Translations under genes and position numbers: made by a program
Source of the DNA: Candidatus Omnitrophota bacterium
Lineage (GTDB): Bacteria > Omnitrophota > Gorgyraeia > Zapsychrales > Zapsychraceae
Reading direction: 5' to 3'
Length of the DNA stretch: 64,000 nt
Assembly: GCA_016212005.1 (NCBI GenBank)
Contig: JACRHP010000009.1
Location: 6,560 to 70,559, forward strand
The notes under the pieces: model-generated
Database searches by the model: none
Seen by the model: the letters and a program-made list of their open reading frames with translations, nothing else
Told to the model about the DNA's origin: nothing
Shown: in pieces, positions 5,700-34,766 of the stretch
How the letters are laid out: each line of letters opens with the position of its first letter
How positions within the stretch are numbered: position 1 is the first letter of the stretch

Positions 5700-6863
5700 G
5701 TGAAAGGAAAATATTACCTCACATCGGAATCCGTAGGCAATGGTCATCCTGATAAAGTTTGCGATCAAATTTCGGACGCGGTTTTGGACTCGGTTTTACG
5801 CGAGGACCCGATGGGTCGTGTGGCGTGCGAAACGTTCATTACGACCGGATTGGTCATCGTTGGGGGAGAAATTACCACCAAGACCTATATCGATGTGCAA
5901 AAACTTGTCCGCCGCGTTTTGACCGACATTGGATACACAGACCATAAATACGGCTTTAATTCCGTGACCTGCGGAGTTTTAAACGCTATCGTCGGCCAGT
6001 CGCCGGACATCGCTCAAGGTGTCGATGCGGGCGGCGCCGGTGACCAGGGGATCATGATCGGCTATGCCTGCGATGAAACTCCCGAACTCATGCCGTTGCC
6101 GATCGTCCTGGCCCATAAACTTGTTCAGCGGGTCGAAGAGGTCAGAAAGAACGGGACACTAAAATATCTGGGGCCGGATTGCAAGAGCCAGGTCACGGTC
6201 GAATACGAAGATGGAACACCCAAGCGCGTTGATGCCGTTGTTCTGGCCTGCCAGCATACCGAGGAAATTCTGGATAAAACCGGCAAGAAAATTACTGATG
6301 AAGCTCGAAATGAAATTATTAAAACGATTGCCACACCGATCCTTGGCAAATTAACGGACAGCCAGACAAAATATTACGTTAATGAAACAGGTAAGTTCGT
6401 TGTCGGAGGCCCGCAATCGGACACGGGGATGACCGGCCGCAAGATCATCGTGGATACCTATGGCGGCGTTGTTTCGCACGGCGGCGGCGCTTTCTCCGGC
6501 AAGGACCCGACCAAGGTCGACCGTTCCGCGACTTACATGGCCCGCTATGTCGCCAAGAATATCGTGGCGGCCAAACTGGCGCACAAGTGCTGGGTCCAGT
6601 TCAGTTATGTCATCGGCCGCGCCGATCCGGTCAGTGTTATGATCGATACCTTCGGAACCGGCAAGATCTCCGAGCAGGATCTCGTGGATCTGGTCCGTAA
6701 GAATTTTGATCTCACCCCGCAGGGGATCATCCGGGATCTCGATTTGCAAAAACCGATTTACCAGAAAACGGCCGCGTACGGACATTTCGGCCGGGAAGAA
6801 TTTTCATGGGAAAAAACATCCAAAGCCGCCGCGCTGGAAAAGGCGGCAACGGCCTTGCGGTAA
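5700..6863 (+). CDS. metK: S-adenosylmethionine synthetase
   Basis: [16 protein letters not shown] and the GGGAFSGKD loop. Start is GTG. Confidence 0.9.
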
Positions 6864-17905: not shown

Positions 17906-19165
17906 GTGTTTATCGTTTATGACATCATTTTTAGCGTTCTGGTGTTGCTGTATTTGCCTTATCTTGTCTGCAATGGAAAATGGCATGGCGAGTTCTGGAC
18001 GCGGCTGGGATTGCGGCCGTTGCCCGTTCCCGCGGCCGAAGAGAAAAAAACAATCTGGGTCCACGCGGTCAGCGTCGGCGAAATATTGGCCGTTGTCCCG
18101 CTTGTCCAGGGGTTGCGCGAACGGTTCCCGGGACATGGGCTTGTTGTTTCCACCGTTACCCGGACAGGATACGCTCTGGCCAGGGAGAAATTGCAGATGA
18201 CAGGCACTGTCATTTACGCGCCGGTCGATTTCAGCTGGGCCGTCCGCCGTTATGTCAAGACGCTTAAACCCGTTCTTTATATTTCTGCGGAAACGGAAAT
18301 ATGGCCGAATCTGTACACGTTTTTGCATCGGAGCCGTGTCCTTGTTATCCAGGTCAACGGCCGCATATCGGACCGGGCATTCGCCGGATACAAAAAGGTC
18401 GGTTTTCTGACGCGCCGGGTGCTGGCCTGCGTGTCCGGCTTTTACATGCAAACCGAAGAAGATGCCGGAAGGATTGTCCTGCTGGGGGCGTCCCCGCAAC
18501 GCGTGCGCGTTGTTGGAAATTTGAAATTCGATCAGGCCCAAAGGGAGACATCGTTGAACAAAAAACAACTGGGCTTTGACGACACTGTCCAGTTGCTGGT
18601 TGCCGGGAGCACTTACCCGGGAGAAGAAGAGATCGTCCTTGCGGCATTCCAACAGTTGTCCGGAGAATTCCCGGCGTTGCGCCTGGTTCTCGCTCCGCGC
18701 CACGTGGAAAGGGCCGAAGAAATCGTCCGTCTTGTTCAAAACAAGGGGTTCCAGCCGCGGCGGTTTTCCAGCTTGCCGCAAGACAAGGAGGCCGGCCGCA
18801 CTATTTTGATCGTTGATCGTTTTGGGTACCTGCGCGATATTTACAGTTTGGCCGATTGTGTTTTTATCGGGAAATCTTTGCGCGGCCGCGGCGGGCAGAA
18901 TATGATCGAGCCGTTGTCCTTCGGCAAGCCGACTTTTGTCGGTCCGCATACGGAAAACTTTCGTGATGTTGTGCGGATCTTTGAGAAGACCGGCGCGCTT
19001 ATCCGGGTGGAGGATGGGCCCGGACTGATTGCGCAGGTCCGGCGGGTACTGGCCGATCCGCCGCGATTACCGGTCATTGCTGCCGCCGCTATCGAGGAGA
19101 GCAGGAAACATCAGGGCGCGACGCAAAGGACTTTGGAAATCATTGGAGATATTTTGAAACCATGA
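17906..19165 (+). CDS. waaA: 3-deoxy-D-manno-octulosonic acid (Kdo) transferase
   Basis: IWVHAVSVGE motif; GT30 family. Start is GTG. Confidence 0.85.
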   Translation: MFIVYDIIFSVLVLLYLPYLVCNGKWHGEFWTRLGLRPLPVPAAEEKKTIWVHAVSVGEILAVVPLVQGLRERFPGHGLVVSTVTRTGYALAREKLQMTGTVIYAPVDFSWAVRRYVKTLKPVLYISAETEIWPNLYTFLHRSRVLVIQVNGRISDRAFAGYKKVGFLTRRVLACVSGFYMQTEEDAGRIVLLGASPQRVRVVGNLKFDQAQRETSLNKKQLGFDDTVQLLVAGSTYPGEEEIVLAAFQQLSGEFPALRLVLAPRHVERAEEIVRLVQNKGFQPRRFSSLPQDKEAGRTILIVDRFGYLRDIYSLADCVFIGKSLRGRGGQNMIEPLSFGKPTFVGPHTENFRDVVRIFEKTGALIRVEDGPGLIAQVRRVLADPPRLPVIAAAAIEESRKHQGATQRTLEIIGDILKP

Positions 19166-20241: not shown

Positions 20242-22174
20242 CTGGTTGGGTGGTTTTATGCGGTTGCTGCCGCTTCAGGCGGCGCTATGGATCAGCCGTC
20301 TTGTCGGCACGCTGGCCTATTATTTTGATATCCGCCACAAGACAATCGCCTACGCCAATATCAAGGCCGTCTTCGCCGATTCCAGATCTCCCGCTGAAAT
20401 CCGGCGCATGACCAAAGAACTATTTCGGAATTACGCGCAGAATTTTATCGATTTATTCCGCCTGCCGCTGGTAACTCCCCAGAATTTCCAGGACCTGATC
20501 ACCGTTGAAGGTATCGAGAATCTTTCCCTTGGCCTTGGCCAGGGGAAAGGCGCGATCATGCTGGCCATGCACTTCGGCAGCTGGGAACTGGCCAACCTTT
20601 CCTGCGCCATGCTCAAATTGCCTTATAAAGTTATTGTCAAACCGCAGACGCGGTATACCCGTCTGGAAGAGCTTTTAAATTCCTACCGTTCCTGCGGCGG
20701 TTACGTTGTCCTTAACCGGGGGATGGGGACCCGGGACTTCGTGCGGAGCTTGCAGAGCAATGAGGTCATCGGGATGGTGGTCGACCAAGGCGGGCGCGAC
20801 GGGGTCCTCGTACCGTTTTTTGGACGCAACGCTTCTATGTCGGTAGGGGCGATCCGCATGGGGCTTAAATGGGGAGTCCCGATTTGTTTTAGCGTCATCC
20901 ATCGTCAGCCGGGCGGCCGGCACAAAATGATCGTCCATAAACCCCTGGAACTGGTCAACACGGGGCGTACGGAGGAAGACATCGTTGCCAATCTTTCCCA
21001 AATCACGAAGATCATGGAAGATTATATCCGGCGTTATCCCTCGGAGTATATGTGGTTTTATAAAATCTGGAAATATTCCGACCAGACCTCCATCACAATC
21101 TTGAGCGACGAGAAAACAGGACATCTGCGCCAGTCCCAGGCCGTGGCCCGGTTATTGCAAAAAGCCCTGGCCGAACGTGAAATCCGTTCCAGCGTCCAGG
21201 AAGTCCCGGTCCGGTTTAAAGGCGAATTCCACCGGAACCTTTTCGCCGTTTTGAGCCTGTGTTTACCGCCGTTTTTCCATCAAGGGCATCTGGAATATCT
21301 GAAATGGTTTTTAACGGGTGAATCTTACGGCCGGGCAATCCGGGTCAAGTCGGATTTTATTGTCTCCTGCGGTTCATCCGTCGCGGCGGTTAACTATTTT
21401 CTGGCAAAGGACCATGGCGCCAAAAGTGTCGTGGTCCTCAAGCCCGGGATCCTGGGATACAGGAAATTCAACCTGGTGATATTGCCGCGACATGAAATGC
21501 CGCGTCAGGTCCCGGCGGGGCCGCGTTTGGTGGAAACGTTGGGGGCCCCGAACCTGATCACCCCGGAATATCAGCAGGAACAATCGCAGGGACTGCTCAA
21601 GCGATATTCACATTTAAAGAATAACCTGAAGATCAAGATCGGCCTTTTTATCGGCGGCGATTCGAAGGATATCTTTTTAAGCGAACACCTGTTGAAAGTT
21701 TTGGTCCACCAGCTCACCGAGGTGGCGCAGGAGATCAGCGCGGACATCCTGGTGACAACCTCACGGCGTACTCCGGCGGCCGTTGAAGAATTACTGCAAA
21801 AAAGGCTGCGCAAACATCCGCGGTGTCCGCTCCTCGTTATCGCCAATGAAGATGACGTGCCCGAAGCGGCAGGAGGCATGATGGGGTTGTCGGACATCCT
21901 GGTCGTTTCCGGAGACAGCATCTCGATGATCTCGGAAGCGGCCAGTTCCGGGAAGAAGACCATTGTCTTCCTGCCGGAACTGCGCCAGAAAGAGCAGCGG
22001 AAATCGAACAAACATCTGGCATTCATTGAACAGTTAGGGGCGGAAGGTTATCTTTTTGCCAGCAGCATCAAGGACATCGGCCGCGCCGTTTATGATATCG
22101 CCAAGGGCAAGATCCAGACCAAGCCGCTCAACGATAACCTGGTGATACTCGATGCCCTCCGGAAAATTATTTAA
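20201..22174 (+). CDS. Fusion of an LpxL/HtrB-family lipid A acyltransferase (N-terminal) with an ELM1/DUF1022-like domain (C-terminal)
   Basis: N-terminal half shows LpxL-like transmembrane anchor and acyltransferase motifs. The C-terminal roughly 380 aa resemble the Mito_fiss_Elm1 family. The start is uncertain (ATGs at 20186, 20201, 20258) and the first two overlap lpxK. Confidence 0.6.
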   Translation: MPSFSESLIFHSVNWLGGFMRLLPLQAALWISRLVGTLAYYFDIRHKTIAYANIKAVFADSRSPAEIRRMTKELFRNYAQNFIDLFRLPLVTPQNFQDLITVEGIENLSLGLGQGKGAIMLAMHFGSWELANLSCAMLKLPYKVIVKPQTRYTRLEELLNSYRSCGGYVVLNRGMGTRDFVRSLQSNEVIGMVVDQGGRDGVLVPFFGRNASMSVGAIRMGLKWGVPICFSVIHRQPGGRHKMIVHKPLELVNTGRTEEDIVANLSQITKIMEDYIRRYPSEYMWFYKIWKYSDQTSITILSDEKTGHLRQSQAVARLLQKALAEREIRSSVQEVPVRFKGEFHRNLFAVLSLCLPPFFHQGHLEYLKWFLTGESYGRAIRVKSDFIVSCGSSVAAVNYFLAKDHGAKSVVVLKPGILGYRKFNLVILPRHEMPRQVPAGPRLVETLGAPNLITPEYQQEQSQGLLKRYSHLKNNLKIKIGLFIGGDSKDIFLSEHLLKVLVHQLTEVAQEISADILVTTSRRTPAAVEELLQKRLRKHPRCPLLVIANEDDVPEAAGGMMGLSDILVVSGDSISMISEAASSGKKTIVFLPELRQKEQRKSNKHLAFIEQLGAEGYLFASSIKDIGRAVYDIAKGKIQTKPLNDNLVILDALRKII

Positions 22175-22224
22175 AATTTATCGCGTGGAGCCCCACGGGT
22201 TAACACCCGTGGCCCCTCTATTTT
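22162..22224. repeat. 63-bp direct repeat, copy 1, containing a terminator-like hairpin (ccacggg-ttaaca-cccgtgg)
   Basis: Nearly identical to 23469-23531 (2 mismatches). Includes the last codons and stop of the upstream gene. Confidence 0.8.
22193..22224 (+). terminator. Candidate intrinsic terminator (7-bp GC stem followed by ...ctatttt)
   Basis: Hairpin followed by a T-rich tail, seen directly. Confidence 0.4.
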
Positions 22225-22367: not shown

Positions 22368-23495
22368 ATGAAAATACCTCGGTTTTATCAGGATTTAACT
22401 CCCTACCTTAAGCCAAACAATGTCCTGGTCATTTATGGGCCGCGGCAGGTCGGCAAGACCACGCTGATTCAGGATTTTCTGGCCACCGTTCCGGGGCGCT
22501 ATAAGCTGGATTCAGGAGATAACATCCGGATACAGACCGTTCTGGGGTCGCAGGATTTTGACGTGATCAAAGAATACGCGCAAGGATATTCTTTGATCGT
22601 TATCGATGAAGCCCAAAGAATTCCCAACGTCGGCCAGGGATTGAAAATTCTGGTGGATCAGCTTCCCGGTATTCAGGTGATCGCGACGGGTTCTTCCTCT
22701 TTTGAACTGGCCGGGCAAGTGGGGGAACCGCTCACCGGGAGAAAAACTACGCTGACATTGTATCCGGTATCGCAGTTGGAATTGCGGGGCCTTTATAACA
22801 CTTATGAATTGAAAAACAACCTGGAGCATTGGCTTGTCTTCGGGGGGTATCCCGAAATCACCGCGGTAGGATCAAAAAGTGAAAAGATCCGCTTGCTGGA
22901 AGAATTAGTGCAATCGTATTTATTCAAGGATATCCTGGAGCTGGAACAGGTCAAGAGTTCCAGGACCCTTATGGACCTGTTACGCCTGTTGGCATTCCAG
23001 GTGGGCAAGGAAGTCTCGTTAAACGAACTGGGACAGCAGGTCGGCGTGGACACCAAGACGGTGGCGCGCTATCTGGACCTCTTTGAAAAGGCGTTTGTCG
23101 TTTACAATCTGCGCGGCTTTAGCCGCAACCTGCGGTCCGAGATCGTGAGGAAAGGCAAGTATTATTTTTATGACAACGGCATCCGCAACGGCGTGATCTC
23201 AAATTTTAACGAGATGGGACTCCGTAACGACGCCGGAGAATTGTGGGAGAATTTCCTGTTTATGGAACGGCTCAAGAAACGGTCTTATCAGAATATATAT
23301 GCCAACAGTTATTTCTGGCGGACGTGGGAACGCCAGGAAATCGATTTGATCGAAGAGCGGGAGGGCAAATTGTTCGCATTTGAATTCAAGTGGGGCAAAG
23401 ACAAAACCAAACTGCCGAAGCAATGGGCCGCGGCCTATCCCGAAGCGTTGTTTGAGGTCATTGACAGAGAAAATTATTTAGAATTTATCGCGTGA
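22368..23495 (+). CDS. AAA+ ATPase with DUF4143 (COG1373-like)
   Basis: Walker A GPRQVGKTT, and Walker B IVIDEAQ. Confidence 0.75.
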   Translation: MKIPRFYQDLTPYLKPNNVLVIYGPRQVGKTTLIQDFLATVPGRYKLDSGDNIRIQTVLGSQDFDVIKEYAQGYSLIVIDEAQRIPNVGQGLKILVDQLPGIQVIATGSSSFELAGQVGEPLTGRKTTLTLYPVSQLELRGLYNTYELKNNLEHWLVFGGYPEITAVGSKSEKIRLLEELVQSYLFKDILELEQVKSSRTLMDLLRLLAFQVGKEVSLNELGQQVGVDTKTVARYLDLFEKAFVVYNLRGFSRNLRSEIVRKGKYYFYDNGIRNGVISNFNEMGLRNDAGELWENFLFMERLKKRSYQNIYANSYFWRTWERQEIDLIEEREGKLFAFEFKWGKDKTKLPKQWAAAYPEALFEVIDRENYLEFIA

Positions 23496-23531
23496 AGCCC
23501 CACGGGTTAACACCCGTGGCCCCTCTATTTT
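23469..23531. repeat. 63-bp direct repeat, copy 2
   Basis: See copy 1. It supplies the last four codons (EFIA*) of the AAA ATPase gene in a different frame. Confidence 0.8.
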
Positions 23532-23770: not shown

Positions 23771-24313
23771 ATGATCAACTTGCGCTCCCAAATCACACAA
23801 AAGGTCCTGGGGTATTTCTACCTCCACGAAGACGCAGAAATGTACATCAATGAAACGGCCCGCCGGCTTGGTCTTGACAGTGGTAATCTCACCAGAAAAT
23901 TCGAGGAGTTGGAAAGCCAGGGGATCCTCAAGAGCCGGTGGAAGGGGGCCCAGCGGTATTATTCGCTTGATAAGGAATTCTCGCTTTATCAGGAATATAA
24001 AAAAATTATCAAAAAAACCGTTGGTTTTGAAGAAATCTTGCGCGCTTCTTTAAAATCACTTGCAGGCATTCAACAAGCTGTTGTCTTCGGCTCTTACGCG
24101 GCTGATAAAATGGATCCCAAAAGCGATATTGATGTATTGGTCATCGGAGATCATGACACGGTGGAACTGCAAAAAGTAATTGCCCGGATCCAGAGATCCG
24201 TTGACCGTGAAATAAATTGTATCACTATGACTGGCAAAGAATACCGGGAAAAACAAAAAAAGGACCCGTTTTTAAGATCCTTAAAAAGTAAACCCCGTCT
24301 TGACCTCTTATGA
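23771..24313 (+). CDS. wHTH-fused minimal nucleotidyltransferase (MNT, Pol-beta superfamily)
   Basis: GSYAADKMDPKSDIDVLVIGD motif with an N-terminal winged-helix region. Confidence 0.8.
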   Translation: MINLRSQITQKVLGYFYLHEDAEMYINETARRLGLDSGNLTRKFEELESQGILKSRWKGAQRYYSLDKEFSLYQEYKKIIKKTVGFEEILRASLKSLAGIQQAVVFGSYAADKMDPKSDIDVLVIGDHDTVELQKVIARIQRSVDREINCITMTGKEYREKQKKDPFLRSLKSKPRLDLL

Positions 24314-24732
24314 CCCGGTTTGAGAAAGAATATTTCCGCCCGTTTTCTTTCAGCGGCAAAGAGATTGACCGTTATTTCCAGAACGCTTTGCGCGATCTTA
24401 AAATTGCCCAGACGGATCCCTACACGGAAGTGCGGTTTACGTATTGTTATCAGGCCTTGATCAAATCCGGCATCGCCTTGATCGCCAAAGTCGGCCAGGT
24501 CAAAGTCAGAAGCGTGGCCGGGCACCATGTCCAGGTATTGACGAAAATGAGCAATTTGTTGAACAACCCGGATATTTTGACCATCGGCAATGCCATGCGC
24601 ATGAAACGTAATCTGGACCTTTACAGCGGCGGCGAATTCATCAGCAAGAAAGAAACCGGCGATTATATCCGTTTTACAAAGCAGGTTATCAATCAAACGG
24701 AGAAAATTATCAAGGCAGGGAAGAAGGAGTAA
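24310..24732 (+). CDS. HEPN domain protein, partner of the upstream MNT
   Basis: ATGA overlap with the MNT gene; 140 aa, helical, with an R..H-type motif. Confidence 0.7.
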   Translation: MTRFEKEYFRPFSFSGKEIDRYFQNALRDLKIAQTDPYTEVRFTYCYQALIKSGIALIAKVGQVKVRSVAGHHVQVLTKMSNLLNNPDILTIGNAMRMKRNLDLYSGGEFISKKETGDYIRFTKQVINQTEKIIKAGKKE

Positions 24733-24914: not shown

Positions 24915-25133
24915 ATGCCTCCTGAAGCATTCTCCAGAGTTTTGATCGACGAAGCCCTGAAATCCTCCGGCTGGGATCTGGCAAAGAATGCTCATTTCGA
25001 ACTTGCCGGATCGCAAGAGGCTCGATGATATTGTTTTCGACACGATCGGCCTCACCGCCGCCGAACGCAAAGAAGTCTACTGGTCTGTCTGTGAACTCGT
25101 CAAAAACCGCCTCGACCAAGCAGGAAGTGTGTG
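24915..25133 (+). pseudogene. Internally deleted remnant of a restriction enzyme gene (HsdR/Res-like N-terminus joined out of frame to a type IIG-like C-terminal motif)
   Basis: N-terminus reads IDEALKSSGWD. A frameshifted continuation reads LDDIVFDTIGLTAAERKEVYWSV, the typical C-terminal motif of type IIG/MTase enzymes. Confidence 0.4.
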
Positions 25134-25147
25134 AAGCGAGTAATATT

Positions 25148-26083
25148 ATGAAGGAACAGAAACCCAAAAAACGGCACCATTATATACCTGTCTTTTATTT
25201 GAACGGTTTTACGGATAAAAACGGATGTCTATATGTGTACGATAAAGACACTAAGCCGGTGTTTGAATCCTCTCCCGAGGGTATCGCATACGAGAACCAC
25301 TATTTTTCTTTTATGACGCCACATGGCGAAAGGGATTCGGAGACCGTGGAAAATGCTATCATGTTATGGGAGGGAGAATTTGCAAGAATAGTAAAAAAAA
25401 TCCATGATCATGAGGATTTGACGGATGATGATTATATGGTTTTTTCTTTTTTCGTTGCATCTATGATGATAAGAGTTCCCAACATGAGGGATAACATACG
25501 GAAAGCGACCGGCGAGACGATAAAACGTATGAATGTCTTCATGTCGTCCCACAAAGAAAATTTTGGACGAATGATAAAGAAGTATGAAAGCAATACAGGA
25601 AGGCAAATTGGCATGGATGTTGAAGAACTGCGTCAATGGATGAATAATCCGGACAATTATGACATGACCGTTGACAAGGAATATGCTACTGGAATGGCTT
25701 TATGCTTGCTTGAAGATCTTGCGAAGGGGTTTTTAAATATGAAATGGGCTTTTTTAAAGGCAACGGACGACTATAAATATGTGACAGGTGACAATCCGTT
25801 GCGATACATTGACCCGACACATAACCCGCGCTCATTTTACGGAGTAGGGCTCGCCAACGAAAACATAGAAGTTTCCTTGCCCTTATCCAAAGAGATTTGT
25901 GCTTTCGGTTCATGGAAATATAGAGAAGGTCATATACAAGCCAATAGTCAGCATGTAAAACATTTAAATAAAATGACCGTTAGCGCATCGGTAAAGTTTG
26001 TATTCGCCGATACCAAGTCAGAGATTATTGACCAATTTGTAAAAAAGTATAAAGATAGCCATCCTGTAATGGTCGTTGGTTAA
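25148..26083 (+). CDS. DUF4238 family protein
   Basis: HHYIPVFYLNGF N-terminal signature in an AT-rich gene. The track ORF extends upstream, but the ATG at 25148 fits the family N-terminus. Confidence 0.65.
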   Translation: MKEQKPKKRHHYIPVFYLNGFTDKNGCLYVYDKDTKPVFESSPEGIAYENHYFSFMTPHGERDSETVENAIMLWEGEFARIVKKIHDHEDLTDDDYMVFSFFVASMMIRVPNMRDNIRKATGETIKRMNVFMSSHKENFGRMIKKYESNTGRQIGMDVEELRQWMNNPDNYDMTVDKEYATGMALCLLEDLAKGFLNMKWAFLKATDDYKYVTGDNPLRYIDPTHNPRSFYGVGLANENIEVSLPLSKEICAFGSWKYREGHIQANSQHVKHLNKMTVSASVKFVFADTKSEIIDQFVKKYKDSHPVMVVG

Positions 26084-26121
26084 GGTAAAGGCGTAATTCG
26101 GGATACAAATGCAGGATGCAG

Positions 26122-26274
26122 GTGACAGTCACTCCGGCGGGGACAGACATGGCGAGCCTCGTCGCTCGTGTGACCGAAATCCGCGCCATGCAAGCCGACC
26201 AATCCGCCAGCCGCAAGCGTCTGGACGACCTGTTTCAGTCAATGTTACACCGTGCTTTTGAGGGGGAGTTATGA
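26122..26274 (+). pseudogene. hsdS: C-terminal remnant of a type I restriction specificity subunit (HsdS)
   Basis: ...SRKRLDDLFQSMLHRAFEGEL* is the conserved HsdS C-terminal helix, with no upstream target-recognition domain. Confidence 0.55.
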
Positions 26275-26434
26275 CGAAGGAGGAATTAAGGTTGCGTCAC
26301 ACGTCCCCCGACGTGTCCTATAAAAAGGTTATGCAGCGAAAATTTCAAGAGCTTCAGCCGGTGAGTTTAATGGATTTGGGAGTGATTTAGATTGAACCTA
26401 ATGTCTATTTTAAATTAGCCTTGGTGAGGATAAT

Positions 26435-28450
26435 ATGATAAAGGCGTTTGTCGGTCACAGTTTTGACTCGGAAGACGAGTCAATAATTACTGCATTCAAA
26501 AAGATGTTTAATAGCTTAAGAACGAGCATGGCTTTTGAGTGGGAAGATGCTGAAGCTACACAGATTAAACCATTGTCAAAAAAGGTTCCGCAAAAAATGG
26601 CGGATAAGAATTTGTTTATTGGTATTTTTACACGAAAACACATAGAACTTGAACTGAAGCAATTAATTCCGTCCAAGCCTTGGAATAAGAATAAATATGT
26701 TATTAGAAGGGCCGATTGTGCTTATGGAACATCGTACTGGATTACTCAGGAAAGTGGATATGCTATAGCTCAGGGCATGGTAACTCTTTTTTTAATTGAA
26801 AAGGGCGTGAGAGAATTAAAGGGATTGCACGCCGATATGGAACACATCTATTTTGAGCGAGGCAAAGAAAGCGAATGTTTTGTTAAGCTAAACGAAGCTT
26901 TAGGTCAGTTTCTTAGCGAGAGCAAAATCAATAACGGGAAAAAAGGGAGCAATATTCCTCCCAAACAATCAGAAAAAGATATTGCTACGGCGGCGAGCGA
27001 AAATATTGCTGTGCAAGAGGCCACAGAAGCTGATGAAGCGCAAGAAGTAAAAAAGCATAAAGAAAAAAAGGATGATAAGTATTATTTTAGGGAAATGTAT
27101 TTCGCGCTTCTTGAGAAAGAAAATGCAAAATTCGAGCAACTAAAAAATGAGGTTTTTGAGAAATATAAAGCCGACGAAGATGGCACGATAGAGTGGCAAG
27201 CTAAAGTATTATCTCTGGAAAGCCTTTTGACGCAGAAGGATGTTTTAAATGACTTGAAGGAGCTTCAAAAAAAGAAGCCTGAAAATGCATTGATAGCTTA
27301 CTATATTGGCGAAGAATATGAAAAATATAAGAATTATGAACAAGCAATCGACGAATACCTAAAATCTGCAAGACTGGAAAAACAAGTTGGATCTAAATTG
27401 CATAGGGTTAGCCTGGCCGCCCATGCCTATGTAAAAAATGGTCAAAAAAACGAAGCGATAAATATTTTATTAAAAGAATTACACGAGGATTCGCCTGATG
27501 ACGAAAAGCGTTTGATATATGGATATTTAGCTGATATTGCGAAGGCCATGGAGGACAATGAATTATTTACAGTTTTCGCTGAAAAAGCATTGGCGATAAA
27601 TCCGAGTAATAGCTCGTTAAGGTTCAGTCTTGCTTATAAGTATTCCAATATGGACAAAGATGTGTTGGCTTTATATCACTACAATATTTTAGCCGCTAAC
27701 AGCCCAGATTCATCGAATTGTAATAACCTCGGTGTAGCATATGCCAGTTTGGGAATGCCTAGCAAGGCGGTAGAATCATATATCAGGGCAAGTGAACTAG
27801 GCGCGACAATATCAAGAGCTAATCTTGCGCAAAAGCTACTTAACGAAGGATTCATTGATTATGCGAACAATCAGTTAAAAGAGGCTATGAAATCAGAGGA
27901 TTATGAAAAAGATAATGTGGGAAGGGCATTGCTAAGGATAGATTCAATTCGCGAAGAAGAGAACAAAAAAGAAAAAGAGGCATTAGAGGGTATTGCGGGG
28001 GAAAGGCGTTTTAAGCAAGATTATGCAGATGCATATTCAATTGGTTTTATTGTTAGCGAAGCATTAAGCGGTGAATGGAATAGCAAGCATGGCAAAATTG
28101 AAATACATTTAGAATCCGGGAACAATCTATATGGTAAAAAGGAAGAAACGGTCGAGGGAAACAATTTGTATCTGGCTGCGATGTTAGCCGGATCGTCCGT
28201 TGGCACAACACCAGAAAAGCGAATCGTTAAATTTATAAGAACATTCGAAGGCAAAATAATTAAAAACAGGACTTTTGAATATAAACTTAAGATTGAAAGA
28301 CAGCCACCGTATAGCACTCTATTAGCACAGGATCTTACGATAACCGAATTTTCTGGCTACGGGATCATAAGCAAAGAGATGAATTTGATAAAGGTAATGG
28401 AGCTTGACAAGGATAAAAAGCAAACTTTCTTAGAAATGATAAAAACATAA
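26435..28450 (+). CDS. Large TIR-like domain + coiled-coil + TPR-repeat protein (candidate defense effector)
   Basis: N-terminus has FVGHSFDSEDE and SYWITQESGYA motifs (TIR-like S.W...E). The middle has several TPR-like repeats (AYYIGEEYEKYKNYEQAIDEY; LGVAYASLGMPSKAVESY). No Walker A motif is visible. The gene is AT-rich. Confidence 0.55.
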   Translation: MIKAFVGHSFDSEDESIITAFKKMFNSLRTSMAFEWEDAEATQIKPLSKKVPQKMADKNLFIGIFTRKHIELELKQLIPSKPWNKNKYVIRRADCAYGTSYWITQESGYAIAQGMVTLFLIEKGVRELKGLHADMEHIYFERGKESECFVKLNEALGQFLSESKINNGKKGSNIPPKQSEKDIATAASENIAVQEATEADEAQEVKKHKEKKDDKYYFREMYFALLEKENAKFEQLKNEVFEKYKADEDGTIEWQAKVLSLESLLTQKDVLNDLKELQKKKPENALIAYYIGEEYEKYKNYEQAIDEYLKSARLEKQVGSKLHRVSLAAHAYVKNGQKNEAINILLKELHEDSPDDEKRLIYGYLADIAKAMEDNELFTVFAEKALAINPSNSSLRFSLAYKYSNMDKDVLALYHYNILAANSPDSSNCNNLGVAYASLGMPSKAVESYIRASELGATISRANLAQKLLNEGFIDYANNQLKEAMKSEDYEKDNVGRALLRIDSIREEENKKEKEALEGIAGERRFKQDYADAYSIGFIVSEALSGEWNSKHGKIEIHLESGNNLYGKKEETVEGNNLYLAAMLAGSSVGTTPEKRIVKFIRTFEGKIIKNRTFEYKLKIERQPPYSTLLAQDLTITEFSGYGIISKEMNLIKVMELDKDKKQTFLEMIKT

Positions 28451-28574
28451 GCCGGTTCTGATAATAAACGTCAGGTACAAATTTACAAATTTAGGGGACA
28501 GGTAAGGTATGTTGATGGACAAATTCCCAGACACATTCCATGCCGGAAATCAAGGAAATCAACGTGCCAGGCAC

Positions 28575-28650
28575 TTTTGGACACCTGCTTACGAACGTCC
28601 GCGGCGCGGCCGCGATCTTTCTTGACACGCTTTTAGGGGAAGAGCTTGCC
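28575..28650. repeat. 76-bp direct repeat, copy 1, upstream of the first Bro-N gene
   Basis: About 90% identical to 29621-29697. Confidence 0.7.
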
Positions 28651-28651
28651 G

Positions 28652-28720
28652 GGGGGCAGGCCTGCCTGCCCTGTCTGCCCTGACTGCCGTCAGGCAGGCG
28701 ACAGGCAAGCGGCAGGCAGG
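28652..28720. other. Long imperfect GC-rich palindrome (cctgcctgccctgtctgccctgac...gtcaggcagg...caggcagg)
   Basis: Inverted repeat seen directly, immediately upstream of the Bro-N gene. Confidence 0.5.
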
Positions 28721-28771
28721 TTGAAGGCCGCGAAGAGGCCGCAGGGCGAGGGAAAGGAAGAGTTTAGTCTT

Positions 28772-29605
28772 ATGAAACAATCACAATCAATCGCGCTTTT
28801 TCATCAGAACAAGGTCCGCCGCCATTGGGACGAGGGCAGGGAGCTCTGGTATTTTTCGATTGTGGATGTGGTGCAAATATTGACCGGCTCCACGATCCCA
28901 AGACGATATTGGAGCGATCTTAAAACAAAGCTTCAAGCGGAAGGAAGTGAAGTGTACGAGAAAATCGTACAGTTGAAAATGACCGCTCCGGACGGGAAAC
29001 AAAGAGAAACAGACTGTTTATCCACTGAAGATCTGCTCCGCGTCATCCAGTCCATCCCATCCCCCAAAGCCGAGCCTTTTAAGTTGTGGCTGGCGAAAGT
29101 GGGCTATGAGCGCATCGAAGAAACCGAGGACCCGGAGCTCGCGATGGAACGGGCGATGAAAACCTACCTCAAGAAAGGGTATACCAAAGAATGGATCAAC
29201 CAGCGGCTTAAAAGCATTGAAGTGCGCAAGGAATTGACGGATGAGTGGCAGGAACGGGGCATGAAGGAGGGTTTGGAATACGCGATATTGACCGACGAAA
29301 TCACGAAAGCATGGGCTGACAGGAGCGTCAAAGATTATAAGAAGCTCAAAGGCCTGAAGAAGCAAAACCTGCGCGACAATATGACCAACCTTGAGCTGGT
29401 TTTGAATATGCTGGCTGAGGCCTCCACGGCTGAGATTTCCAGGAAGAAACAGCCGAAAGGTTTGCCGGCCAATAAACAGGTTGCGCGTCAGGGCGGCGCG
29501 GCGGCGGGAAAAGCGCGGGCCGAGATCGAAAAACAAACCGGCGAAAGCGTCATCACCGGCGCGCATGCCCGCGCGCTTCCGGTTGAGAAAACAAAGAAAA
29601 ATTAA
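28772..29605 (+). CDS. Bro-N domain protein (phage antirepressor/BRO-like)
   Basis: WYFSIVDVVQIL...LKMTAPDGKQRETDCLSTEDLLRVIQSIPSPKAEPFKLWLAKV matches the Bro-N pattern. The track ORF includes the GC palindrome; the ATG at 28772 is preferred. Confidence 0.7.
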   Translation: MKQSQSIALFHQNKVRRHWDEGRELWYFSIVDVVQILTGSTIPRRYWSDLKTKLQAEGSEVYEKIVQLKMTAPDGKQRETDCLSTEDLLRVIQSIPSPKAEPFKLWLAKVGYERIEETEDPELAMERAMKTYLKKGYTKEWINQRLKSIEVRKELTDEWQERGMKEGLEYAILTDEITKAWADRSVKDYKKLKGLKKQNLRDNMTNLELVLNMLAEASTAEISRKKQPKGLPANKQVARQGGAAAGKARAEIEKQTGESVITGAHARALPVEKTKKN

Positions 29606-29620
29606 CGAAAATTAAAGGCG

Positions 29621-29697
29621 CTTTGGGACACCTGTTCACGAACGTTCGCGGCGCGGCCGCGCTCTTTCCTGACATGCTTTTGGGAGAAGAGCTTGCC
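29621..29697. repeat. 76-bp direct repeat, copy 2
   Basis: See 28575-28650. Confidence 0.7.
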
Positions 29698-29873: not shown

Positions 29874-30170
29874 ATGTCCACTGAAACGTACTTAACCAAA
29901 ATTGCAGTTTTCAAAGGAAGAGAGGTCAGGAGGGTTCTTATTGAGGGGAAATGGTGGTTTTCCGTGGTTGATGTTGTTTCCGTATTGACGGACAGTGACA
30001 ATCCGCGCGATTATTGGTACAAGATGAAGATCAGAGAAAAAGACGAGGCGGATGTTCAACTGTCGACAATTTGTCGACAGTTCAAATTGACCGCCCCGGA
30101 TGGCAAGTTGAGAAAGACGAACTGTGCCAACATGAGAAGAATAGGCGCCAGTCACCCGGGCAAGTTTTGA
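29874..30170 (+). CDS. Truncated Bro-N paralog (98 aa)
   Basis: N-terminal two-thirds parallels the upstream Bro-N. Homology ends at a 20-bp repeat (gccaacatgagaagaatagg) that is also present at 29695-29714. Confidence 0.55.
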   Translation: MSTETYLTKIAVFKGREVRRVLIEGKWWFSVVDVVSVLTDSDNPRDYWYKMKIREKDEADVQLSTICRQFKLTAPDGKLRKTNCANMRRIGASHPGKF

Positions 30171-30295: not shown

Positions 30296-32398
30296 ATGAA
30301 AATTTTACAAATATTGCCTGAATTAAATGTCGGCGGGGTGGAGACCGGGACGGTCGACCTCGCCGGTTATCTGGCGCGGCAGGGACACCAGTCCATCGTC
30401 GTTTCCAACGGCGGAGAGCTTGTCGCCCGGCTTGAGGCCTCGGGCACGAAGCATTACACGCTGCCGGTGCACAAGAAATCTTTATGGACGATGTTCTGGT
30501 CTATCAAGGCGTTGCACAAGATTATCCTTGAGGAAAACGTCGACGTGGTCCATGCCCGCTCGCGCGTGCCCGCCTGGATCGCGTATTTCGCCTGCCGCAA
30601 GACAAAGGCGGCGCTGGTGACGACCTGCCACGGTTATTACGGCAGCCGGGTCTTCAGCCAGGTCATGGGCTGGCCGAAACTGGTCATCGTCCCCAGTGAA
30701 GTCATCGGCCGCCACATGATCGAGCATTTTCGTGTTTCTCCCAGCGGCATCCGGTATATCCCGCGCAGTGTCGATCTCGAACGATTCCGTGTGCCACGAG
30801 CCGATACGGCAGGCAAGTCCTTTTTTACTGTCGTTATTGTCGGGCGCCTGACGCCGCTCAAAGGGCACACCTTTTTTTTGCGGTCCATGGCGAAGGTCAT
30901 CCGCGCGATGCCCAATATCCGCGTCTGGATTGTCGGCGACGCGCCTGCCGGCAAACAGGCGTATAAAGAAGAGCTGCAGCTCTTGATCAAGAGGCTGGGC
31001 ATCCAGGGGCAAGTCGAGTTCCTGGGCAACCGCCGCGACGTGCCGCAGCTGCTGGCGCAGGCGGACGTGCTTGTCCTTTCAACCATCACCCAGGAGGCTT
31101 TCGGCCGGGTGATCCTCGAGGCCCAGGCCGTGGGCGTGCCGGTCGTGGCGACCAAAGTCGGAGGGGTCGTGGATATTATTGAGGACGGCCGCACCGGCCT
31201 CTTGGTCCCGGCGAAAGATATCGACGCCATGGCCAAGGCTGTGACGCGTGTTCTGAACGATAAAAAAACCGCCGCGCAAATGGCTGTGGCTGCGCGGGAA
31301 AAACTCGAGAGAGAATTCACGCTGGAACAGATGGTGTCCCGGACGATCCGGGTCTACGAGGAACTGATGCAGTCCATCAATATCCTGGTCATCAAGATCA
31401 GTTCGATGGGGGACGTGGTCCTCGTCACGGCGGCGTTAAAAGCGCTGCGCGCCCAATATCCTCACGCGAAAATCTATTGTCTGGTGGGCAAAGATTCCAG
31501 AAAAGTCTTGCAAAACTGCCCCCATCTCGACGGCATCATTGTGGATGACCCCAAGAATAAATATAAAGGGTGGTGGCGGACGTTTCTTCTTTCGCATAAG
31601 CTGCGTAAATACCGTTTTGATAAAATCGTGGATTTTCAGAACAACCGCCGCAGCCATCTTTTGGCCTTTTTGAGTTTCTCCAGGGAAAGTTACGGTTACG
31701 ATAACGGGAAATGGGGTAATCTGCTGACGCATCCTTTGAAAATATACCGCAATGATATCCCCGCCGTTGAACATCAATTTCAGCTGTTGAAGGAAATGGG
31801 CATCGCCATGCCGCCGGACGCCGCCCTGGAGCTGTGGCCGTCGGCCAAAGACCGGCAGTATATCCAGGAGTTGCTGGAATCCGAATGGCTGGGCAACATC
31901 CCGCGCATGGTCGGGATCAACATCGCCGCGTCGGAAAAATGGCAGACGAAAAACTGGCCGGTGGAACATATCGCGCGTTTATGCGATCTGCTGGCGGCCA
32001 GGAACATCCGCGTCCTTGTTACCGGCATGGAAAAGGACAGGCCTGTTGTCCAGCGGCTTATGGAAAACACAAGATCCAAACCGGCTGTTTTTGTCGGGCG
32101 CACGGACATCCTGCAACTGGCCGCCCTGATTGGACGCTGCAGCGTCTATATCACGCCGGATTCGGCGCCGCTTCACGTGGCGGCCGCCATGAAAACACCG
32201 CTAGTCGCCTTCTTCGGCCCGACGGATTCGCGCAGACACCGGCCGCCGGCGCGGCATATGGTTGTCCTCGAAAAGAAACTTGCCTGCGCGCCCTGTTACA
32301 GCCCGCGGTGTCTTGTCATGACTCACGCCTGTATGCGTGAGATAACTCCCGATGAAGTCCTCCAGAAGGTTGAAGAACTGATGGGCGCAAAAGTATGA
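30296..32398 (+). CDS. Bifunctional glycosyltransferase: GT4 domain (N-terminal) fused to a GT9 heptosyltransferase-like domain (C-terminal)
   Basis: N-terminal MKILQILPELNVGGVETGTVDLA...EAFGRVILEAQAVGVPVVAT (GT4). C-terminal INILVIKISSMGDVVLVTAALKAL...APLHVAAAMKTPLVAFFGPTD (GT9). Confidence 0.75.
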   Translation: MKILQILPELNVGGVETGTVDLAGYLARQGHQSIVVSNGGELVARLEASGTKHYTLPVHKKSLWTMFWSIKALHKIILEENVDVVHARSRVPAWIAYFACRKTKAALVTTCHGYYGSRVFSQVMGWPKLVIVPSEVIGRHMIEHFRVSPSGIRYIPRSVDLERFRVPRADTAGKSFFTVVIVGRLTPLKGHTFFLRSMAKVIRAMPNIRVWIVGDAPAGKQAYKEELQLLIKRLGIQGQVEFLGNRRDVPQLLAQADVLVLSTITQEAFGRVILEAQAVGVPVVATKVGGVVDIIEDGRTGLLVPAKDIDAMAKAVTRVLNDKKTAAQMAVAAREKLEREFTLEQMVSRTIRVYEELMQSINILVIKISSMGDVVLVTAALKALRAQYPHAKIYCLVGKDSRKVLQNCPHLDGIIVDDPKNKYKGWWRTFLLSHKLRKYRFDKIVDFQNNRRSHLLAFLSFSRESYGYDNGKWGNLLTHPLKIYRNDIPAVEHQFQLLKEMGIAMPPDAALELWPSAKDRQYIQELLESEWLGNIPRMVGINIAASEKWQTKNWPVEHIARLCDLLAARNIRVLVTGMEKDRPVVQRLMENTRSKPAVFVGRTDILQLAALIGRCSVYITPDSAPLHVAAAMKTPLVAFFGPTDSRRHRPPARHMVVLEKKLACAPCYSPRCLVMTHACMREITPDEVLQKVEELMGAKV

Positions 32399-33486
32399 AT
32401 GTTCTTTTTTTGACAACGCATCTTAACACCGGCGGCATTACCAGTTATCTTTTGACCCTGGCGCGGGGGATGCGCCGCCGGGGCGTTGGCGTCTCTATCG
32501 GCTCAAGCGGCGGTAATATGGAAAATGAATTCCGTTCGGCAGGCGCGACGGTCGTCCCGCTCGCCATCCGCACAAAATCCGAGCTGGACATCCGGATTTA
32601 CGCGTGCCTGCCCCGTTTGAAACGGCTGGTCAGCGACTATAAAATAGATATTATTCACTCTCATACCCGGATCACCCAAGTCATGGGGACATGGCTGTCG
32701 CGCGTGACCGGCGTGCCGTATGTATCCACCTGTCACGGTTTTTTCAAACCACGTCTTGCGCGGCGGCTGTTTCCTTGCTGGGGGGAAGCGGTCATTGCCA
32801 TCAGCGGCCCGGTACGGGACCACCTGCGCGCGGACTTTGGGATCCCGGACGAGAAAATCAGCATAGTCCACAGCGGCGTTGACGTGGAGTTGTATTCTCC
32901 GGTCGATACTCAAGCCGGAATAAAATGGCGGAATAAATATAACCTCGGCGAAGGTCCGGCCCTGGGAATGATCGCCCGTTTCTCGGATGTCAAAGGCCAG
33001 GATATCGCCATCGAGGCGATGCGGACGGTCGTCCAAAGAGTTCCCGGCGCCAAACTCCTTCTGGCCGGAGAAGGAAAAATGGAACAAAAACTTCGCGAAA
33101 TGGTAAAATCGTTCCAACTGGAAAGCCGCGTTATTTTTTGTCCTATTGTAAACCAGACCGCCGGGCTTTTATCGGCGCTGGATATTTTTCTTGTGCCCTC
33201 GCGCCAGGAAGGTCTGGGGCTTTCGATCATGGAAGCGCAGGCGGCCGGGTTGCCGGTGGTGGCTTCCCGGGTGGGAGGGATCCCGGGATTGATCGAACAT
33301 GGCCGTACCGGTATCCTGGTGGAACCGGAAAACCCCGCGGCCCTGGCCGAGGCGGTCATCGTCTTGTGCCGGGACGAACGTCGTCGGGCCGAATTAGGCA
33401 AGGCGGCCAGAGAGTTTGTCCGTAAGAATTATTCCGCTGATGCCATGGTCGCGGCGACGTTGGACTTCTACAAATCGGCAATTTGA
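32395..33486 (+). CDS. GT4 glycosyltransferase
   Basis: GLGLSIMEAQAAGLPVVASRVGGIPGLI motif. ATGA overlap with the previous gene. Confidence 0.8.
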   Translation: MNVLFLTTHLNTGGITSYLLTLARGMRRRGVGVSIGSSGGNMENEFRSAGATVVPLAIRTKSELDIRIYACLPRLKRLVSDYKIDIIHSHTRITQVMGTWLSRVTGVPYVSTCHGFFKPRLARRLFPCWGEAVIAISGPVRDHLRADFGIPDEKISIVHSGVDVELYSPVDTQAGIKWRNKYNLGEGPALGMIARFSDVKGQDIAIEAMRTVVQRVPGAKLLLAGEGKMEQKLREMVKSFQLESRVIFCPIVNQTAGLLSALDIFLVPSRQEGLGLSIMEAQAAGLPVVASRVGGIPGLIEHGRTGILVEPENPAALAEAVIVLCRDERRRAELGKAAREFVRKNYSADAMVAATLDFYKSAI

Positions 33487-33640: not shown

Positions 33641-34267
33641 ATGTTAATCCCGGCCGGAAGGAAAAAAATACTCGAAGTATTCTTAAAAGACCCTTTTAAA
33701 GAGATCCATTTACGGGAACTCTCCCGCCTGTCAAAATCCTCATTGGCTAATGTGGACAACTCAATGCGCTTATTTGTAAAAAACGACATGTTTAAGCGTA
33801 ATGAGATGTCGCATTCCACCTTCTTTAAGCCCAATCTTGAAAATGATGACACCATAAAAATATTCGAACTTTTGGAACTTGAGCGGCGCAAGACATTTTA
33901 CGCGAAGAATAAGAATATCGCCCGCCTGATTAAAAAATACACCGATTCAATTATTGAACTATCCAATAAGCGCATCCAGCTTGTTGTGCTTTTTGGCTCT
34001 GTAGCAAGGGGCGAATGGACAAAGGGAAGCGATATTGACATATTGGCAGTCGTTCCGGACAAGGAAAACGATATCATTGATATATTGAACAAGGCCAAGA
34101 CGGATGTCAGCCCGCTTTTAGAAATAAGGCCGATAAGCACCACAACGAAGAAATTCATTGATGGCTATAAGGCCAAGACTGAGTTTTACGATAATCTCTG
34201 GAAGGATCGCATTGTTTTGTATAACGAATTTCTATTCTGGCAACTTATAAGAGAGGGGGGCAAATAA
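33641..34267 (+). CDS. wHTH-fused minimal nucleotidyltransferase (second MNT)
   Basis: GSVARGEWTKGSDIDILAV motif; AT-rich. Confidence 0.75.
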   Translation: MLIPAGRKKILEVFLKDPFKEIHLRELSRLSKSSLANVDNSMRLFVKNDMFKRNEMSHSTFFKPNLENDDTIKIFELLELERRKTFYAKNKNIARLIKKYTDSIIELSNKRIQLVVLFGSVARGEWTKGSDIDILAVVPDKENDIIDILNKAKTDVSPLLEIRPISTTTKKFIDGYKAKTEFYDNLWKDRIVLYNEFLFWQLIREGGK

Positions 34268-34268
34268 T

Positions 34269-34766
34269 ATGCCCGAAAATTTGGAGAGGATTTTGCTGGG
34301 GTGTTTTCATCCAAAAGAAGGGAGGCCGAATTTACAGAAGGTGCCGGTCAGCACCGAGCGCGCGCAACTGCACATCGACAAGGCGCATAACAACCTGCGC
34401 GCAATGAAGCTGATGTTCGACAATGACCTCCTTGATTGGACGATCATCTGCGGTTATTACGCGATGTATCACGCGGTTTTAGCTTCTTTGTATAAAATAG
34501 GCGTTCGCGCCACAGCGCACTACTGCGCGCTTGCGGCGTTCAAGGAATTCTATGTCAAACGCGGTAAAGTCAAACCGGAGTTTCTTGCCTACATCAAACG
34601 CGCCAAACAGCTTGAGCAGAAATATTCCGAGTCATTGGACAAGGCTCAAGAGAACAGAGTGGTTGAACAATACGGCGTTGAGATTATCACCAGCGATGAC
34701 GCCGAATGGATTATCGAAGATGCAAAAGACTTTGTGCTGAAGATAGAGGAGATTTTAGCGGAGTAG
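34269..34766 (+). CDS. HEPN domain protein (second pair)
   Basis: 1-nt gap after the MNT gene; helical, with a YYAMYHA...RATAH region. Confidence 0.65.
   Translation: MPENLERILLGCFHPKEGRPNLQKVPVSTERAQLHIDKAHNNLRAMKLMFDNDLLDWTIICGYYAMYHAVLASLYKIGVRATAHYCALAAFKEFYVKRGKVKPEFLAYIKRAKQLEQKYSESLDKAQENRVVEQYGVEIITSDDAEWIIEDAKDFVLKIEEILAE

Follow-up and report, generated by a model that had tools for sequence, protein, structure and literature searches.

The gene and its coding sequence

The DNA considered here is a 64,000-nucleotide stretch from a Candidatus Omnitrophota genome (GenBank assembly GCA_016212005.1, contig JACRHP010000009.1, forward-strand positions 6,560 to 70,559), and this whole stretch is what is meant below by the window. 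The element of interest is a single gene at 26435..28450 (+), taken from a list of open reading frames (ORFs) and complete with ATG start and stop, whose 671-aa product consists of a TIR-like head, a tetratricopeptide repeat (TPR) body and a terminal beta domain. The gene will be referred to as the TIR-TPR gene. It belongs to a family whose only recurrent genomic association is with type I restriction-modification (R-M) systems, an association absent from an earlier note on this DNA that had been made from the letters alone.

That note's 671-aa ORF is present as described. A Shine-Dalgarno-like GGTGAGG, as read from the sequence, lies 5 nt before the ATG (26423..26429, +), and the ATG itself agrees, in alignment, with the N-termini of homologues. 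The protein is 100% identical to a hypothetical protein of a Candidatus Omnitrophica metagenome-assembled genome (MAG). The gene had also been called AT-rich, and indeed its GC content is 37.4% vs 51.7% for the 64-kb window; it is held within a low-GC stretch, located at approximately 24-29 kb of the window, which breaks into a series of lipopolysaccharide (LPS)-core genes.

Neither a Walker A nor a Walker B motif is found in the 671-aa protein by regular-expression search, and a Pfam scan likewise returns no NTPase match, confirming the previous statement that this is not a STAND- or Avs-type protein. A STAND, Avs or NLR-like identity is ruled out accordingly, there being no Walker motifs and, between effector and repeats, disordered linker only, as judged from the AlphaFold2 (AF2) model.

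The N-terminal domain

Residues 1-165 (26435..26929, +) constitute a TIR-like domain, that is, one of the TIR / N-deoxyribosyltransferase fold. The full-length AF2 model, built on the family alignment, has a mean pLDDT of 82.4, and within it this domain displays strands at residues 2-7, 34-38, 60-65, 116-122 and 136-140 along with a C-terminal helix at 145-165. A further helix, residues 101-112, carries W102, Q105 and E106 and comes after strand 60-65 plus a variable insert of residues 66-100. The two motifs upon which the earlier note had relied are found within this same domain, FVGHSFDSEDE as residues 5-15 and SYWITQESGYA as residues 100-110. The former overlaps a first-strand motif, AFVGHSF (residues 4-10; 26444..26464, +), and the latter is the predicted active-site helix (26732..26764, +), with E106 the candidate catalytic residue.

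Conservation was judged from an alignment of 51 homologues that extends down to 25% identity. Invariant there, from within the N-terminal domain, are F5, S9, F10, I64, S100, W102, Q105, E106, G108 and E122 (51/51), with A4, V6 and H8 kept in at least 90% of the aligned sequences. With invariance reaching that far, the motifs are not a product of chance. The W102-x3-E106 spacing, furthermore, is that of W638-E642 of SARM1, the register of which was checked via KDWVHKE, i.e., residues 636-642 of full-length SARM1 chains in the PDB; E642 is the established catalytic residue of that protein.

For fold searching, a model was used that joins window residues 1-165 to 519-671, with full-length homologues supplying the alignment (pLDDT 87). 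On the N-glycosidase side its structural comparison score is 12.8 against MilB. Among TIR domains the scores are 12.6 (IL-1RAcP), 12.3 (TIRAP), 11.7 (SARM1), 11.6 (CAP12 TIR-STING) and 11.1 for both the B. cereus TIR and ThsB, with SEFIR at 11.8. Foldseek ranks the CMP N-glycosidase BcmB first (E 6e-4), ahead of the RPS4 TIR, SARM1 and DNPH1. The AF2/Foldseek check thus yields a flavodoxin-like alpha/beta fold of TIR topology with its glutamate, rather than the non-TIR flavodoxin-like fold lacking that glutamate which the earlier note had named as the contrary outcome; in the model, a fold match to the deoxyribosyltransferase-like N-glycosidases is likewise present.

It is sequence profiles that break this tie between TIR and N-glycosidase folds, and they break it toward TIR, as matches are to TIR families only. 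Among 39 family N-terminal domains, PF10137 (the CAP12/Pycsar effector TIR) matches 19, at best with 5.4e-7, and TIR_2 matches five, at best with 4.6e-8; the deoxyribosyltransferase Pfam family (PF05014) and DUF4062 match none of the 39 even at E<=1. Scans with Pfam, NCBIfam and PADLOC of the whole window protein, and of its residues 1-180 and 491-671, return TPRs only. The TIR superfamily membership of the window protein is therefore transitive, since it is full-length homologues which match PF10137 or TIR_2. The N-terminus previously described as TIR-like consequently holds as regards its fold, its W-x3-E glutamate and the TIR profile matches of its relatives, but not as regards a TIR profile match of its own. 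As modelled, the domain has diverged within the TIR-like N-glycosidase fold while keeping the glutamate conserved, and NAD+ would be its substrate.

The linker, the TPR solenoid and the C-terminal beta domain

The head is followed by a linker rich in K, E and A, residues 166-213 (26930..27073, +), with a mean column identity of 0.14. This is where a coiled-coil had been proposed, a proposal not upheld by AlphaFold, which leaves these same residues disordered (pLDDT 29-35). From there the protein continues as a TPR-like alpha-solenoid, residues 214-535 (27074..28039, +), modelled by AF2 with pLDDT >90 and recognized by both Pfam and Foldseek. The solenoid consists of sixteen helices, i.e., eight hairpins, over residues 214-484, plus two capping helices extending to residue 535. 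The TPR-like repeats of the earlier note, put at a minimum of four, are thus real, but the body they belong to is larger than that, with its eight hairpins. Pfam matches, to TPR_1, TPR_2, TPR_8 and TPR_17, are confined to residues 273-455, and with Foldseek the whole model matches TPR proteins only, these being OGT, SPY (SPINDLY), CTPR (consensus TPRs), APC/C and PEX5.

Conservation within the protein peaks at residues 381-490 of the solenoid (27575-27904), where identity to the window protein averages 0.49, the highest of all segments, as compared with 0.44 for the N-terminal domain, 0.30 for the first half of the TPRs and the lowest value, that already given, for the linker. Invariant across the 51 aligned sequences are the repeat residues E383, R396, Y416, N430, N431, N463, G472, F473 and A477.

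What had been an unassigned C-terminus of roughly 180 aa resolves into the capping helices and, after them, a discrete domain of approximately 130 aa, residues 541-671 (28055..28447, +), which in the AF2 model has eight beta strands spanning 546-670 and a pLDDT of about 90 except for a loop at 577-593. Its mean identity is 23% (0.29 as mean identity to the window protein), with only W548 conserved, making it the fastest-evolving folded part of the protein. At E 0.01-0.1 and probability 0.6-0.9, the Foldseek matches (retinol-binding protein, avidin, streptavidin, a designed beta protein) are weak, and they weakly suggest a calycin-like up-and-down barrel. A profile search with this domain found only fragments of the same family and no other architecture; by sequence, that is, the domain is specific to the TIR-TPR family.

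A family of fixed architecture

A word-indexed search returned 173 homologues, nearly all of the full-length ones being 640-680 aa. An exhaustive phmmer search, with residues 1-165 only as query, was made against 1.84 billion cluster representatives (clusters at 50% identity), with 674 proteins passing E<=1e-3, of which 445 also pass E<=1e-10. Of the complete matches almost every one is 640-685 aa, and from this near-constancy of length it follows that the N-terminal domain occurs in essentially one architecture. Source databases label these proteins either ‘hypothetical’ or ‘TPR repeat protein’. In PADLOC-DB v2.0.0 the window protein has no match at E<=1, and PADLOC models applied to 51 family members give three marginal single matches only (best E 0.0013; ThsB 0.0059).

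A scan of 185,579 species genomes, using one peptide pattern, retrieved 66 loci from species-representative genomes, a number which is a lower bound, and these loci are scattered over many phyla. Those derived from MAGs include Omnitrophota and ‘Planctomycetales’. Loci are found as well in Thermodesulfobacteriota, Nitrospirota, Alpha-, Beta- and Gammaproteobacteria, Bacteroidota, Ignavibacteria, Melainabacteria, Latescibacterota and Acidobacteriota. Isolates with a family member include Nitrosomonas communis Nm44, Celeribacter baekdonensis DSM 27375, Devosia psychrophila, Bosea sp. LjRoot237 and Lysobacter hankyongensis. A tblastn search of plasmid and phage collections with the N-terminal domain returned no match.

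Linkage to type I restriction-modification operons

Neighbourhoods were compared by calling ORFs around 51 full-length copies and clustering four genes per side. Just three neighbour clusters recur in at least five of these loci, and they are HsdS, HsdR and HsdM, as Pfam and PADLOC confirm. In 11 of the 51 loci the gene is found inside or directly after a type I R-M operon, with HsdS, the sole recurrent upstream family, encoded by the gene just before it in 10 loci and by the one before that in the remaining locus. There are two gene orders, hsdR-hsdS-gene-hsdM (e.g., N. communis) and hsdM-hsdS-hsdR-gene. Six of the 11 linked loci have the start of the gene overlapping the stop of hsdS, as ATGA four times and as TTGA and GTGA once each, an arrangement that implies co-transcription together with translational coupling; in one further linked locus a 2-nt gap separates hsdS stop from gene start. 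The HsdR partners share an EcoEI_R_C domain. Linked members are scattered across the family tree and among distant phyla.

Close relatives of the window protein were looked up separately. All three, at 79%, 74% (Candidatus Omnitrophus magneticus) and 73% identity, are encoded directly after hsdM-hsdS-X-hsdR, with X being Fic, a 162-aa ORF or a Schlafen/AlbA_2 protein. The same placement is seen with a 75% identical copy at another locus (L012).

Most family members, the window copy included, have no R-M genes within 10 kb. Neighbours across the loci include toxin-antitoxin, Fic, DpnI, Schlafen, NmeDI and Peptidase_U49 genes; the downstream neighbours are otherwise heterogeneous, and many of them are of mobile or defence type (HTH, Fic, DpnI, reverse transcriptase, HicB, IrrE-like protease). 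The gene is poorer in GC than its flanks at every one of 50 loci, by a mean of 10.6 points, and this is true within hsd operons too.

The R-M operons that carry a TIR-TPR gene display peculiarities of their own. An HsdS at locus L070 (8256-9995) has an internal GIY-YIG nuclease domain, residues 213-281, positioned after the first target-recognition domain, and two other upstream HsdS genes of the set have this same, unusual fusion. In the operon of a close relative, L079 (4409-7927), HsdR seems to be split, with a 592-aa N-terminal part (HSDR_N, ResIII) followed by a 558-aa protein combining a T1R_D3-like region with a LexA-type Peptidase_S24, directly upstream of the TIR-TPR gene. Genes combining Schlafen/AlbA_2 with HATPase_c_4 also are found in such operons, between hsdS and hsdR in L079 (2855-4288) and directly downstream in L025 (4672-6525), which indicates that several cargo genes can be carried at once.

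The window copy and its surroundings

The nearest upstream gene encodes a DUF4238 protein (25025-26083, +; Pfam E 3e-41; PADLOC ‘DUF4238-Pers’ E 8e-17; GC 40.6%) and ends 351 nt before the TIR-TPR gene. The earlier note had treated this adjacent gene as a prospective partner. Besides standing at that distance, DUF4238 is absent from beside homologues of the TIR-TPR gene at every other locus examined; a functional partnership is rejected for that reason, and the DUF4238 gene most likely is separate cargo.

Within the spacer there is a short frame, 26089..26274 on the same (+) strand, which ends 160 nt before the TIR-TPR gene, its end reading SRKRLDDLFQSMLHRAFEGEL / LDDLFQSMLHRAFEGEL, each followed by a stop. 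Its GC content is 58.6% vs 37.4% for the TIR-TPR gene. The C-terminal motif resembles the ends of HsdS proteins in related loci, such as L077 (LNDLEELKKSVLKKAFNGEL, then stop), and of three tblastn matches the two that are annotated are C-termini of ‘restriction endonuclease subunit S’, albeit weak ones (E 0.1-0.4). Comparison of the 351-nt spacer with the loci of relatives by blastn and tblastx gave nothing significant, and the call of an hsdS remnant therefore rests on the motif and those weak tblastn matches. The frame is probably the 3' end of a decayed hsdS, an identification made at the level of a motif and statistically insecure. Apart from this hsdS-like remnant no hsd gene was detected within the 64-kb window, and an intact R-M system elsewhere in it was rejected, none having been found. 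Our reading is that an R-M locus has decayed here and that the TIR-TPR gene survives from it solo.

Additional cargo flanks the gene, i.e., besides DUF4238, an AAA_14/DUF4143 ATPase gene, two Bro-N genes, and an HTH-nucleotidyltransferase gene followed by a small ORF. There is no tRNA between 15 and 40 kb of the window, and a mobile-element boundary marked by a tRNA was rejected on that basis. A 63-nt direct repeat, 97% identical, at 22162-22224 and 23469-23531, contains a GC-rich hairpin (CCCACGGGTTAACACCCGTGG) and brackets the ATPase gene (22368-23495; PADLOC PDC-S01). Each copy begins at the final codons of the gene before it, as might a cassette boundary or an insertion duplication. An 82-nt direct repeat, 88% identical, at 28569-28650 and 29616-29697, contains a GC-rich palindrome (CGCGGCGCGGCCGCG) and precedes each of the Bro-N genes, at 28646-29605 (PADLOC PDC-S13) and, as a truncated 98-aa copy, at 29874-30170. 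The combination suggests a tandem duplication of which the second copy is decaying.

Two pairs, each consisting of a nucleotidyltransferase-type ORF and a small ORF that starts at its partner's stop, are located at 23771-24732 and 33641-34766. They are inserted among LPS-core genes, these being an lpxK-like gene at 19162 and glycosyl- or heptosyltransferases at 30296-33486 and 34857. Within the first pair, the Pfam scan matches 23771-24313 to HTH plus NTP_transf_2 and leaves 24310-24732 without a match. Going by gene size and order, these would be MNT/HEPN-like toxin-antitoxin pairs.

Proposed function and its alternatives

What the analysis establishes is a fold, conserved motifs, a fixed architecture free of any NTPase, linkage to R-M and a signature of horizontal transfer; the substrate, auto-inhibition, the trigger and the defence phenotype are inferred. 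What is proposed, and held to be somewhat likelier true than false, is a single-polypeptide anti-phage sensor-effector of the abortive-infection type. The head would be an N-glycosidase, most probably an NAD+ glycohydrolase, employing E106 on the helix after the third strand. A flexible linker would tether that head to the eight-hairpin solenoid and the C-terminal barrel, which together would keep the head off while sensing infection. The conserved groove of the TPRs (R396, Y416, N430, N431, N463) probably binds a conserved partner or else an internal segment; specificity for the trigger probably comes from the fast-evolving barrel. Activation would result in NAD+ depletion, or in ADPR-type products, and thereby in a stop to the infected cell. 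Members of the family, AT-rich and presumably mobile, would move as cargo and recurrently share transcripts with type I R-M genes, adding a second layer to restriction. The window copy would now stand solo, its R-M partner having decayed to the hsdS remnant.

Genes embedded in type I R-M systems are usually defence genes (10.1101/2024.01.29.577857; PMC11411939). The embedding of the TIR-TPR gene in R-M operons thus lends independent support to a role in defence, i.e., ‘guilt-by-embedding’. The earlier description of the protein as self-contained fits as well, there being no conserved partner in about three quarters of the loci.

Several observations weigh against this proposal. The best structural matches are nucleotide N-glycosidases or transferases, so the substrate might not be NAD+, and the structural scores of the N-terminal domain are slightly higher for nucleoside 2-deoxyribosyltransferase / MilB N-glycosidases than for TIRs. 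The N-terminus of the window protein falls below Pfam, NCBIfam and PADLOC thresholds, with TIR profiles unmatched even at E<=10, and an N-domain profile run against PDB sequences matched no solved structure, a single-member query likewise giving noise. Placement of E106 in a pocket is based on sequence register together with secondary structure, and the fold assignment of the C-terminal domain is weak (E 0.01-0.1). About three quarters of the loci have no R-M neighbour, several of them lying among housekeeping genes. No PADLOC model covers the family, its role being a prediction from fold, motif and context.

By a more specific version of this proposal, the protein would guard restriction itself. 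It would be silent while bound, by way of its TPR groove, to HsdM, HsdS or HsdR, and would fire as an NADase once a phage Ocr-, ArdA- or Stp-like protein disables or distorts that complex. Such a role would suit the gene's positions, between hsdS and hsdM or directly after hsdR, as seen in two orders, in distant phyla and in all three close relatives, and would suit too the overlap with the hsdS stop and the EcoEI_R_C domain that the HsdR partners have in common; TPR residues 381-490 are, moreover, the most conserved, as expected if they bind a conserved cellular partner, and PrrC, PARIS and Ronin offer precedents (PMC12707154; 10.1101/2023.04.06.535777). Set against this is the absence of R-M genes from near most members, the window copy among them, and the independence of many embedded genes, such as TgvAB and BrxU, from their host system (PMC11411939; 10.1101/2024.01.29.577857). 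As three quarters of the copies are solo and embedded genes often are independent, we regard guarding, itself proposed by analogy, as unlikely, if well worth keeping in view. A shade less likely again is that the family as a whole represents a new kind of guardian, that is, a TIR-like NADase docked on type I R-M that kills by NAD+ depletion upon anti-restriction.

The fold ranks, with BcmB as top Foldseek match and DNPH1 listed too, favour instead an N-glycosidase akin to MilB, BcmB or DNPH1, one which would hydrolyse a nucleoside monophosphate, perhaps a modified one such as phage hydroxymethyl-dCMP or hydroxymethyl-dUMP. Systems targeting modification, moreover, are documented as embedded in type I R-M (TgvAB, PMC11411939). 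Sequence profiles nevertheless place the family with TIR families only, leaving the deoxyribosyltransferase Pfam unmatched at E<=1, S-x-W-x3-E is the TIR signature, and the two fold families differ by 1.5 in Z, which does not discriminate between them. This substrate is consequently improbable, and equally so the complementing of restriction, against phages that evade it via base modification, which would accompany it. Still less probable is that the protein acts without catalysis, as a signalling TIR scaffold or a non-defence TPR adaptor, for instance in oligomerisation, in signalling to an unlinked effector or in housekeeping. Many TIR domains do act as scaffolds, and some of the loci lie among housekeeping genes. 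The absolute conservation of S100, W102, Q105 and E106 across phyla argues for catalysis, however, no conserved effector gene is nearby, and the patchy distribution, uniformly low GC and R-M embedding speak against housekeeping. The reading preferred here thus continues to be that of an abortive-infection-type sensor-effector contained within a single protein.

Novelty and significance

TIR proteins are central to bacterial immunity, and their activation normally requires a cyclase signal, a STAND NTPase, an Argonaute or ThsA. Here, by contrast, is a large family of fixed architecture, of at least 445 clusters at 50% identity, in which a TIR-like head is coupled directly to TPRs and a small barrel, and which is missing from PADLOC v2.0.0 yet has repeatedly been wired into type I restriction operons. 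No account of a TIR-TPR protein linked to type I R-M emerged from a literature search, which did not extend to subscription-only papers or to the current DefenseFinder release. The kinds at issue, TIR effectors that use repeats as sensors and defence genes embedded in R-M, are known, but this architecture along with this R-M association appear to be undescribed. If indeed a defence protein, then the family adds a minimal, NTPase-free TIR sensor-effector. If instead it guards restriction, then it would be a third and unrelated solution to the guarding of R-M, after PrrC and Ronin, with TIR immunity and R-M surveillance joined in one polypeptide that employs neither NTPase nor second messenger. 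The existence of members in cultured strains makes the idea directly testable.

Comparison with known systems

The closest TIR profiles are those of CAP12/Pycsar (PF10137) and of TIR_2, i.e., ThsB-type TIRs, with the window protein itself below the thresholds of both. Unlike CAP12 and ThsB, the family has no cyclic-nucleotide sensor (STING or SAVED), no cyclase and no ThsA partner. Its regulatory part is instead a TPR solenoid plus beta-barrel, and about 35 variable residues are, in addition, inserted after strand 3 and before the catalytic helix. The nucleoside 2-deoxyribosyltransferases, MilB, BcmB and DNPH1 are, for their part, small, stand-alone metabolic enzymes without sensor domains, and none of 39 family members match them by profile.

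For the proposed mechanism SARM1 provides a precedent, being a TIR domain under the control of helical repeats. It differs from the present family in being eukaryotic, in octamerising through SAM domains, in having its TIR C-terminally and in using ARM rather than TPR repeats, and beyond the motif there is no detectable sequence homology between them.

A second precedent, BcTpr of the B. cereus BcTir/Tpr system, combines a MilB-like N-glycosidase with TPRs and has been described as an NADase and producer of a cADPR isomer in phage defence, with ‘Core Tpr alone’ operons reported as common (10.1101/2023.05.26.542521). The likeness, which is one of description only, is of an N-terminal MilB-like N-glycosidase domain with catalytic glutamate that is followed by TPRs. 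BcTpr, however, is 415 aa rather than 671 aa, has no beta domain at its C-terminus and depends on a second gene, that of BcTir; its key residues are N82 and E86, vs S100, W102 and E106 in the window protein. As no TIR gene is adjacent to the window gene or among the recurrent neighbours of its homologues, and given the greater length (671 vs about 415 aa) and extra C-terminal domain, an identity with the two-gene BcTir/Tpr system was rejected.

With PrrC, Ronin, PARIS and genes embedded in R-M more generally (TgvAB and the PADLOC PDC candidates), what the family shares is a logic, namely that of a toxic effector embedded in, and co-transcribed with, type I R-M. The effectors themselves are unrelated to the family protein, PrrC being an ABC-ATPase anticodon nuclease and RonA a 61-aa membrane peptide. 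PrrC also is almost always R-M-linked vs approximately a quarter of the TIR-TPR family, for which PrrC-type embedding is seen in 11 of 51 loci and in three of three relatives, with the window retaining an hsdS-like remnant only. To the extent that the protein may guard restriction, the analogy is with PrrC as paired with EcoprrI and with RonA as paired, in Ronin, with HsdMS.

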